Below are positions 59,073 to 60,434 of a DNA stretch of 64,000 nucleotides, piece after piece. Source of the DNA: a virus (lineage: Duplodnaviria > Caudoviricetes); the IMG/VR virus record IMGVR_UViG_3300037780_000034, positions 192,001-256,000 of that record, one strand, 5' to 3'. Below the pieces are notes generated by a model. That model had not been told where the DNA came from, ran no database searches, and was given only the letters and a program-made list of their open reading frames with translations. Each line of letters begins with the position of its first letter. The first letter of the stretch is position 1. A program made the position numbers and the translations under genes.

Positions 59073-59588
59073 ATGGCAAGTAAAAGTAAAACAAAAGGTA
59101 AAGGATTTGAAAGAGAAGTTGCAAAGTATCTTTCAGATTTATATGGAGAAAGTTTCACTCGTTCTATTACGAGTGGAGCTATGATAGGCGGAAAAAACAA
59201 TATCAGAAAATCTACATTAAGTGAAGGACAAATTCAATCATATAAAGGTGATATTGTTCCTCCAGATGATTGGAAAAAGTTCAATTGTGAATGTAAAAAT
59301 TATTCTGCTTTTCCTTTTCACAAGCTTTTTTCATCTGAAACTATTTCTGATTTAGAAAATTTTATTGATCAAACTATGGAAGTTGCCGATGAAGGTGATG
59401 TTAATATAATTTTTATGAAGTTTGATTATATTGGCAGGTATGTTGCATATCAACTTCCGCAAGATTTTGTTTCAAACAAATATATAGACTATGATTCTAA
59501 AAAATGGGGAAAATGGAGATTTACAAAATTTGAAGATTTTTTTGACTCAAATAAAGAAAATTTTGAAAAAAGTTGTAAAAATACTTGA
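59073..59588 (+). CDS. Holliday junction resolvase-like PD-(D/E)xK nuclease
   Basis: KGKGFEREVAKYLS...GDIV...ECKN. Confidence 0.75.
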   Translation: MASKSKTKGKGFEREVAKYLSDLYGESFTRSITSGAMIGGKNNIRKSTLSEGQIQSYKGDIVPPDDWKKFNCECKNYSAFPFHKLFSSETISDLENFIDQTMEVADEGDVNIIFMKFDYIGRYVAYQLPQDFVSNKYIDYDSKKWGKWRFTKFEDFFDSNKENFEKSCKNT

Positions 59589-59613
59589 CATACATAGAAC
59601 TTTGTAGTATATT
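59585..59613 (+). promoter_or_regulatory. sigma70-type promoter TTGACA-N17-TATATT firing into the non-coding locus
   Basis: TTGACA 59585-59590 and TATATT 59608-59613; no substantial downstream ORF on +. Confidence 0.65.
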
Positions 59614-59648
59614 ATAGATTATAAAACGAATCATTTATGGCTAATATT

Positions 59649-59703
59649 TAACTAATACATAACTAACATTTAACTAACATTTAACTAACATTTAACTAAT
59701 ACA
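59649..59703. repeat. Five tandem 11-bp repeats TAACTAA(TACA/CATT), iteron-like
   Basis: TAACTAA starts at 59649, 59660, 59671, 59682 and 59693. Confidence 0.9.
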
Positions 59704-59734
59704 AGAAAAACAAATTATCTACATAGCAACAACA

Positions 59735-60110
59735 AATGGCAGTAAAATGCCCTCCAAGATTAACTATTTTTATAGGTATGGTATGGTGAACGTTGCACTT
59801 CCCTGATAAGGAAACTGGTTTCGTCTCGGATTGACCACCGAAAAATGAGTGAACTCTGCTGTAGACCACTTGCAATTCACAAAGCTGTTAATGTAATCTA
59901 TACTGCTTTAACAAAGCTTGCGCTGTCTTAAAAGTATTTTTATAATAATAAAAATGCGATTTAAGGAAAATGGACGTAATAAGGTACCGCACAACCGCCT
60001 TACCCAGACGTTATTGGGTTGTCTGTATAGAGTGTCAAAGTCGATGAGGTAATGTAAAATACTGGACTTAGACACATTTCGCCGCTTAAGGCGAAGTGTG
60101 TCTAATCTCC
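59735..60110 (+). ncRNA. Candidate structured non-coding RNA of unknown family
   Basis: Less AT-rich than its flanks, no long ORF, serial hairpins; several stems need G-U wobbles that work only on the + strand. Confidence 0.5.
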
Positions 60111-60208
60111 AAGGTAATATAATTCAGAATCATTATGATTAGATTCATTATAATTCATAATTAAGAATTATACTTAAATAACTAACAATCAATTAAAACA
60201 AAAAAAAA

Positions 60209-60295
60209 TAAAATCTTTCAAATGAACGAAGTGAAAACGGAGTGAATATGAAAGATTTTATAATGATATATATGAACGAAGTGAATATATATCGC
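60209..60295. other. Cluster of inverted repeats carrying TGAACGAAGTGAA / ACGGAGT GNA-triloop mini-hairpins
   Basis: TGAACGAAGTGAA at 60223-60235 and 60273-60285, each enclosed in a larger inverted repeat. Confidence 0.65.
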
Positions 60296-60362
60296 TTATC
60301 ATATTACTACTTGATCAAGAATACATATAATGAATATTGGTTCCTACGAAACCAATAAAACA

Positions 60363-60392
60363 AAAATCACTTGAATTAATTCAAGTGATTTT
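60363..60392. terminator. 30-bp perfect palindrome, probable bidirectional terminator
   Basis: AAAATCACTTGAATTAATTCAAGTGATTTT with T-rich tracts on both strands. Confidence 0.55.
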
Positions 60393-60434
60393 CTTTTTTA
60401 GATTCTTAATTTGTTTCTTTTGAAAATTACATAG

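Follow-up and report, generated by a model that had tools for sequence, protein, structure and literature searches.

Our analysis of a 64,000-nt stretch of DNA (the window; bases 192001-256000 of a 317,722-bp IMG/VR virus record) revealed, in the gap between a resolvase gene and a gp51-like baseplate hub gene, a gene for a large pseudoknotted RNA that lies on the + strand and has its own promoter and terminator. The source virus is a jumbo T4-like phage, and comparison of sequences identified the RNA as a member of a previously undescribed family that is widespread in uncultured T4-like jumbo phages. The original prediction for this locus, a replication origin with a structured transcript or a non-coding RNA (ncRNA) gene plus an origin, was strongly supported in its ncRNA-gene part by covariation, a covariance-model match, strand-specific G-U pairs, and occurrence in more than 100 phages and in four modules of one genome, whereas no positive evidence was obtained for the origin part. 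It is an even call, in our judgment, whether the locus is a self-contained gene for a large ncRNA, with a strong host-type promoter at its start and an intrinsic terminator at its end, whose leader binds the factor controlling gene 32, most likely the gp32 protein. Positions are those of the window; coordinates marked genome refer to the whole record.

A covarying RNA core with two pseudoknots

All of the parts listed in the original prediction were found at their expected positions, and its hairpin-rich segment proved to be a structured RNA core, with a GC content of 39-43% compared with about 25% in the flanks and a folding z-score of -6.2 relative to shuffled controls. The elements of the core are as follows.

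59722-60110, + strand: structured RNA core, from the conserved 5' box CAUAGCAAC (59722-59730) through the terminal hairpin
59849-59880, + strand: helix pair (59849-59853/59876-59880 and 59857-59859/59872-59874) enclosing a near-invariant GCUCU box (59854-59858)
59898-59903, + strand: 5' strand of pseudoknot PK2, in long-range pairing with 60025-60030 (CUAUAC/GUAUAG)
59980-60002, + strand: 6-bp hairpin with a near-invariant 11-nt loop, ACCGCRYAACC (59986-59996)
60003-60018, + strand: hairpin whose loop forms pseudoknot PK1 (partner strand, 59822-59825)
60068-60105, + strand: terminal 16-bp hairpin of the core (helices 11 and 12), with no U-tract after it

RNAalifold predicted 46 pairs from 40 sequences, 32 of them with compensatory double changes. 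A covariance model (R1), built from 27 relatives with the window left out of the seed and spanning the 3' two-thirds of the core (full-length alignment, 338 positions), matched the window over its full model length at 59814-60110 (73.5 bits; E about 1e-23). Covariation was then assessed on an R1-based alignment of 82 distinct sequences, with 500 shuffles and slid-partner controls. Standard pairs occupied 94.9% of the pair cells versus 77.2% after shuffling, changes on both sides were present in 38 of the 43 pairs (shuffled mean, 24.8), and the covariation score was 0.461, compared with 0.185 in shuffled alignments and at most 0.11 with slid partners; none of the 500 shuffles attained the observed covariation values.

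Helix 4 of the covariation alignment was 99.2% paired with compensatory changes in all five of its pairs, and helix 9, the ACCGCRYAACC hairpin, was 100% paired and retained a U-G closing pair in 75 of 76 sequences. Both pseudoknots were proposed by eye and by a column-pair scan and subsequently checked on the alignment: PK1, between the hairpin loop and the upstream strand, was 100% paired with two of four pairs compensatory, and PK2 showed changes on both sides in six of seven pairs. PK1 in the window most likely joins 59822-59825 with 60007-60010, as placed by a one-base shift from the consensus. The sense of the RNA is the + strand, which is also the direction of the promoter, because the conserved G-U pairs would be A-C mismatches on the other strand. 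Collectively, the core is, by the pattern of its covariation, a real structured RNA of ~390 nt with at least 11 helices and two pseudoknots.

A direct repeat, AGGUAAU, flanks the terminal hairpin (60047-60053 and 60112-60118), and its two copies change jointly across relatives (GGCAAG, GUCAAG, and GGAAAA, among other forms). This suggests that the repeats may pair alternatively to one common partner.

A previously undescribed RNA family in jumbo phages

The interval near gp46 was compared across related phages, and a homologous RNA segment was present 3' of gp46 in the loci gathered around gp46 homologues. Matches to an nhmmer profile and to the covariance model extended the family to about 140 IMG/VR viral loci, and more than 100 uncultured phage contigs had the RNA as a single copy. 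The nearest cultured relatives, as judged by gp46, were Pseudomonas phage PA5oct (52%), Sinorhizobium phage Phosso, and Agrobacterium phage Atu_ph07 (46%). The end of the Atu_ph07 record includes an unannotated region that R1 matched with 27.4 bits (E 3e-7 for this genome); the candidate homologue spans NC_042013.1 490018-490297 on the minus strand. With the GCUCU helix and the ACAGGACAACCGCC loop retained in this match, Atu_ph07 seems to hold a distant candidate member, and the family would therefore be open to bench study. No R1 match was found in PA5oct, Phosso, Vibrio phage 2.275.O, or SCTP-2, and a blastn search with the RNA of the window and those of two relatives against 50,697 phage records also gave no match. 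A 17-mer, GGTACCGCACAACCGCC, had 39 matches in 185,579 prokaryote genomes; these are regarded as chance matches in high-GC DNA, because the nhmmer profile recovered none of the 39 as homologous.

The Rfam 15 models (4227 in total, including group I/II introns, RNase P, tmRNA, 6S, GOLLD, ROOL, HEARO, and RF01718) contained no family that matched the window, the other copies in this genome, or 20 relatives at the gathering threshold. At E ≤ 10, only terminator-like hairpin noise was returned over 59500-60500. RF01718 (Polynucleobacter-1) was not detected at E ≤ 10 in the whole genome, at E ≤ 0.1 in eight loci, or at the gathering score in 12 relatives. A hairpin with a AAAAGAGUAGGCA sub-motif in copy B resembled DUF805b (RF02914), with 22.9 bits against a cut-off of 35.6 bits, but DUF805b is a 35-nt motif and the match remained sub-threshold.

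Large, highly structured bacterial and phage RNAs with no known job are rare, and those that have been solved revealed new biochemistry. The family described here is backed by covariation, widespread in aquatic jumbo phages, and multi-copy within one genome. It is comparable to GOLLD and ROOL, which are likewise large, multi-helix, pseudoknotted, phage-encoded RNAs with no known function found by comparative genomics. However, our family is smaller (about 350-400 nt), resides in T4-like jumbo phages with up to four copies per genome, possesses a repeat leader and a hairpin tail, and has no match in Rfam 15.

PA5oct produces four abundant transcripts devoid of open reading frames (ORFs), ncRNA001-004, two of them at 2-5% of phage reads (PMC7318152). 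Despite this likeness in a related jumbo phage, none of the four is syntenic or homologous to the RNA here, and the syntenic PA5oct gap is not among them. Syntenic ORF-poor gaps of 1-2 kb do lie beside the resolvase gene in PA5oct (NC_071039.1, 75.7-77.8 kb; L082:9055-11200) and Phosso (PV764938.1, 229.8-230.8 kb). They contain only tiny hypothetical ORFs and no R1 match, and may hold unrelated or very diverged RNAs. Fragments of this RNA may be present in a large catalogue of IMG/VR candidate viral RNAs (29-151 nt), 12 motifs of which lie upstream of gp32 genes (PMC10690425).

Four RNA modules in one genome

When the whole 318-kb record was searched with R1, four matches were obtained.

Genome 251814-252110, + strand: copy A, the window locus (73.5 bits)
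Genome 120333-120592, + strand: copy B (71.4 bits)
Genome 12227-12483, - strand: copy C (64.4 bits)
Genome 315032-315233, - strand: copy D (47.8 bits)

The copies have diverged beyond what BLAST detects, and each occupies its own ORF-free gap in the orientation of its neighbours. Every copy was recovered as a whole module consisting of a promoter, the core, which opens with a CAUAGCA box, a box of AAUCAAUUAAAA followed by an A run, and two hairpins whose loops read GAA, mini stem-loop, UGA in all four copies. The tails of copies B and D (genome 120636-120747 and 314769-314880) are 99% identical over 112 nt despite their diverged cores, which suggests a recent gene conversion restricted to the tail. 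The other large related contigs had one detectable copy each, with the exception of one contig that had none.

Transcription signals and the conserved tail

The signals that delimit the unit in the window, together with its tail elements, are listed below.

59585-59613, + strand: sigma70-type promoter, TTGACA-17 nt-TATATT, with 11 of 12 consensus matches; its -35 box overlaps the resolvase stop codon
60111-60215, + strand: AT-rich linker 3' of the core
60187-60215, + strand: A-rich box, AAUCAAUUAAAA followed by an A run, common to genomic copies A, B, and D and degenerate in C
60208-60293, + strand: two hairpins, 60208-60261 (Y-shaped) and 60265-60293, with GAA-(N-GNA-N')-UGA loops
60335-60404, both strands: hairpin at 60335-60357, followed by a bidirectional intrinsic terminator formed by the palindrome 60357-60398 and a T-run

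The sigma70 promoter and the AT-rich tract (about 60110-60215) were thus both where the original prediction had placed them. A TTGAC(A/G)-17-TAnnnT promoter stood 5' of all four genomic copies and was also found in relatives such as L002 and L133. The mini-hairpins anticipated in the DNA correspond to the two tail hairpins, in which the loops consist of tandem G.A, a 2-bp mini-stem, and a triloop. Both bear the loop GAACGAAGTGA, an 11-mer with no other exact occurrence in this genome. Equivalent hairpins followed copies B, C, and D, the RNA of L002, and those of the distant L004/L010/L125 clade. In this clade, the mini-stem has changed from C-G to U-A, or the triloop has become a tetraloop; these changes indicate that the fold of the tail hairpins is under selection.

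The predicted 30-bp palindrome was identified at 60357-60398 and scored as a bidirectional intrinsic terminator. Its GC-containing stem of 13-14 bp (60362-60393) is followed by T-runs on both strands, as is usual for an intrinsic terminator, and four terminator-like sites were found compared with 0.3 expected. The same arrangement of hairpin and terminator was present in L002. In the window, this terminator is common to the RNA unit and the convergent gp51 operon.

A leader array common to the RNA and a gp32-like gene

Between the promoter and the core lies a repeat array for which a counterpart was found elsewhere in the genome.

59641-59701, + strand: G-less 5' leader array of six CUAAYA units, five of them in 11-nt register; paralogue of the gene 32 leader array

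The five 11-bp repeats originally reported here were present at 59649-59705 and, when counted as CTAAYA, amounted to six copies at 59641-59701. With a cluster defined as at least three CTAAYA at a spacing of up to 25 nt, only two clusters occurred in the 318-kb genome, versus 0.3 expected from shuffles. The second, outside the window (genome 46205-46289; L240:3205-3289), comprises nine CUAAYA units at 10-11-nt spacing and fills the whole 97-nt spacer before a 327-aa ORF, ending in AUAGGAG, a short spacer, and then AUG. This ORF, at genome 46302-47285, encodes a gp32-type protein that binds single-stranded DNA (ssDNA), with matches to phrog_1192 SSB (E 2e-73) and phrog_224 (E 2e-8), and is followed by a UvsX/RecA-like gene. 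Both arrays open with an identical 5' flank, UUUAUGRCUAAYAU. Genome 46205-46289 is a candidate translational operator of gp32 made of tandem repeats; in contrast to T4, it is preceded by no obvious pseudoknot. The recurrence of the array in the 5' untranslated region (UTR) of the gp32-like gene, where it abuts the Shine-Dalgarno (SD) sequence, favours an RNA-level operator over an initiator-binding DNA array.

A similar association was observed across relatives. CTAAYA reached 1.18 per 130 nt in 65 distinct gp32 leaders of the clade versus 0.14 in shuffles, mostly within AGGCUAAYA...AAAGGCA...AUAGGAG, and 1.07 in 69 distinct ncRNA leaders versus 0.19 in shuffles. AGGCUAAYA/AAAGGCA motifs were common to the gp32 and ncRNA leaders in three contigs with both loci, and a CUAACA array preceded the gp32 gene of the closest relative, whose ncRNA leader had 2-3 units. 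Other subclades carried different G-less arrays 5' of the RNA, notably CUUAAAC/CUAAAAC, a T4-type motif. The single 8-mer GGCTAAYA showed no clear genome-wide enrichment, and significance was confined to clustered arrays.

In T4 and RB69, gp32 is a repressor of its own translation: it nucleates on a folded element and then extends by cooperative binding along an unstructured leader (>40 nt) that includes UUAAA/UAAA repeats as well as the ribosome-binding site (PMC535899). Our locus resembles this gene 32 operator (PMC535899, PMC3014915) in that unstructured UAA-containing repeats, here six G-less CUAAYA units, adjoin a folded RNA element, and in that this repeat unit also occupies the leader of the phage's own gp32-like gene as far as the SD. 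It differs in several respects: the folded element stands 3' of the repeats and is ~10x the size of the pseudoknot in T4 (28 nt), the repeat unit reads CUAAYA, not UUAAA, and recurs every 11 nt, and binding of gp32 is proposed here by analogy. Furthermore, the locus is not in the gene 32 leader, and no ORF or SD follows the RNA in the window. The window locus is accordingly operator-like, not an operator.

A proposed link between the RNA and gp32

On the evenly balanced proposal introduced above, the folded RNA would act in trans, probably together with a protein, and its G-less, unstructured CUAAYA leader would serve as a binding platform for the factor that binds the leader array of gene 32. 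By analogy to T4 gp32 on its own mRNA leader, this factor is most likely gp32 itself. The RNA could compete with the gene 32 mRNA for free gp32, or it could be switched by gp32; in both cases, its action would follow how much ssDNA-binding protein is free while DNA is replicated and recombined. As conserved accessory elements, the A-tract and the GAA...UGA hairpins on the 3' side would contribute to 3'-end stability, processing, or a second protein site. A repeated mRNA-leader motif on an ncRNA would mimic the target and sequester the repressor, as in CsrB/RsmZ (CsrA), CrcZ (Hfq/Crc), and 6S (RNA polymerase). Unlike in those systems, the presumed protein here is an ssDNA-binding protein, the array is present on only one of four paralogues, and those sponge RNAs have nothing equivalent to the large conserved core. 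The link between the leader and the gene 32 operator offers a concrete hypothesis, which, if true, would extend the classic autoregulation of T4 gp32 to an RNA mimic and represent the first sponge-type RNA proposed for an ssDNA-binding protein.

Several observations weigh against this proposal. The array is missing from copies B, C, and D and is thus an add-on rather than the core function. In contig G006, the ncRNA leader carries CUUAAAC/CUAAAAC and the gp32 leader carries CUAAGGCAAA, so that co-variation of the leader motifs is only loose, thematic rather than exact. Factors other than gp32, such as Rho, S1, Hfq, or a regulator of the phage, could recognise such a G-less A/C/U array. An ORF of ~147 aa lies 3' of the RNA on the same strand in most relatives, where a cis role is possible. 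With respect to expression, the sequence of the window is contained in pond metagenome DNA runs only, and no RNA library is listed for it. A weak indication came from relative L003, whose RNA locus was represented among the contigs of 10 or more salt-marsh metatranscriptome libraries; these contigs cover L003 8244-8820, but the flanking genes had similar depth and DNA carry-over is possible. The contigs of four runs end at L003 8800-8820, a hint of a 3' end that is weak at best.

A broader interpretation, which we put forward tentatively and hold to be doubtful, is that these RNAs constitute a new class of large, doubly pseudoknotted phage RNA wired via gp32 to replication and recombination. 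They would function either as a decoy or ribonucleoprotein that, by mimicking the gene 32 operator, senses and titrates free gp32, or as the structured pre-primer of multiple R-loop origins, with four paralogues bearing specialised leaders.

Alternative explanations

The best-surviving alternative, although an unlikely one, is that each module is a replication origin. A folded transcript similar to RNA II of ColE1 would form a persistent R-loop at the A/T-rich tract and be processed by RNase H into a leading-strand primer, while gp32, helicase, and primase would be loaded by the displaced G-less repeat strand and the GNA-loop hairpins. This would give the genome four origins; T4, too, has several. 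Consistent with this scenario, the order of promoter, ~500-nt structured RNA, conserved A-rich box, and hairpins is constant in the four genomic copies, the tails of B and D have been homogenised (99% identity over 112 nt), and the genes near the locus, gp46/47 and the resolvase, belong to recombination and replication. Loops of the C-GAA-G type are similar to the very stable DNA mini-hairpins of phage origins; the link of the repeats to gp32 would also be compatible with coating of a displaced strand. A promoter-driven structured transcript that runs into an A/T-rich tract is likewise the arrangement of ColE1 RNA II and T4 oriF/oriG. In the window, the promoter and the A-rich box (60187-60215) lie about 570 nt of RNA gene apart, in a genome that is A/T-rich throughout (31% GC).

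Against an origin, however, the cumulative GC/AT skew, which the original prediction had proposed as a check, showed no turning point at the locus: turning points at about 41, 201, 245, and 306 kb tracked gene orientation, whereas the modules lie at 12, 120, 252, and 315 kb. The loop sequences and both pseudoknots are conserved from pond and marine phages to Atu_ph07, which is typical of a folded functional RNA; such structural conservation is far deeper than a pre-primer needs and, with the missing skew signal, sets the locus apart from ColE1 RNA II and T4 oriF/oriG. In most relatives, the hairpin tail is missing and an ORF takes its place. The repeats also occur in an mRNA 5' UTR beside the SD, and relatives keep them in transcribed leaders. 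G-free RNA, such as this leader, disfavours stable RNA:DNA hybrids. If the modules were origins after all, they would be the first sequence-defined origins for this group of jumbo phages.

Less probable still is a role as a catalytic RNA or as the RNA component of a selfish or mobile element, which would spread inside and among phage genomes, perhaps together with GIY-YIG (SegE-like) endonuclease genes. Four diverged copies within one genome, a complexity of at least 11 helices and two pseudoknots reminiscent of ribozymes, and a SegE-like GIY-YIG ORF directly upstream in L054-type relatives (L054:6774-7226, immediately 5' of the RNA in one subclade) would fit such an element. On the other hand, Rfam models of group I/II introns, RNase P, HEARO, and other ribozymes gave no match even at E ≤ 10, there was no sign of an interrupted host gene or of flanking exons, the neighbour in the window is a resolvase rather than a homing endonuclease, and the position 3' of gp46 is syntenic and stable across the family, unlike that of a mobile element.

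The weakest alternative, a cis-acting leader or processed mRNA 5' part (for example, riboswitch-like or autoregulatory) of the ~147-aa gene with the window copy left behind after gene loss, draws on the conserved ORF that most relatives carry on the same strand, 100-150 nt downstream, but is very improbable given that this genome has four intact RNA modules and no homologue of the ORF, that the window unit ends in a terminator facing a convergent operon, and that AT-rich, promoter-like spacers separate the RNA from the ORF in relatives. Both the mobile-ribozyme and the cis-leader explanations are considered less likely because no ribozyme model matches, synteny is stable, and the ~147-aa ORF is absent here.

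Genomic setting and additional observations

The record has an estimated completeness of 85% (CheckV). The neighbours of the gap are as follows.

59073-59588, + strand: PDDEXK/RusA-like resolvase gene, 5' neighbour of the gap, preceded by gp47/gp46 (SbcD/SbcC-like)
60435-61525, - strand: 71-aa ORF and gp51-like baseplate hub gene, convergent towards the gap

The switch between convergent gene blocks noted in the original prediction thus separates the resolvase (+) from the 71-aa ORF and hub gene (-), and the 71-aa ORF is retained in relatives L002 and L004. The description of the locus as the only long gap is valid for the window, where it is the sole gap of at least 450 bp with ORFs of at least 75 aa masked, but does not extend to the genome, which has three further module-bearing gaps plus tRNA clusters. 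A 5-codon AUG...UGA frame inside the core was considered as a small ORF and rejected because several relatives lack its AUG. Just 5' of gp47, the window encodes a Hef-like HNH homing endonuclease (54475-56196; phrog_3339, E 2e-141).

The RNA of the L003/L004 subclade lies directly against the stop codon of an ORF upstream, and no separate promoter is visible. The ~147-aa ORF of relatives (L054:7896-8345, L015:10230-10670, and L047:9232-9693, among others) shares the pattern MNFxxF..KFLEWTEN..CPFARKARL, is labelled 'T4-like GC 824', and shows a faint likeness to DUF1415/DUF6875.

ARAGORN detected no tRNA or tmRNA in the window; genome-wide, there were 24 tRNAs in clusters, and the four RNA modules otherwise represent the main non-coding DNA. 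Within a 22-tRNA cluster at genome 137-150 kb, ARAGORN reported a tRNA with a CUA anticodon (genome 138544-138617; amber-reading, labelled Pyl), which may be a suppressor tRNA.

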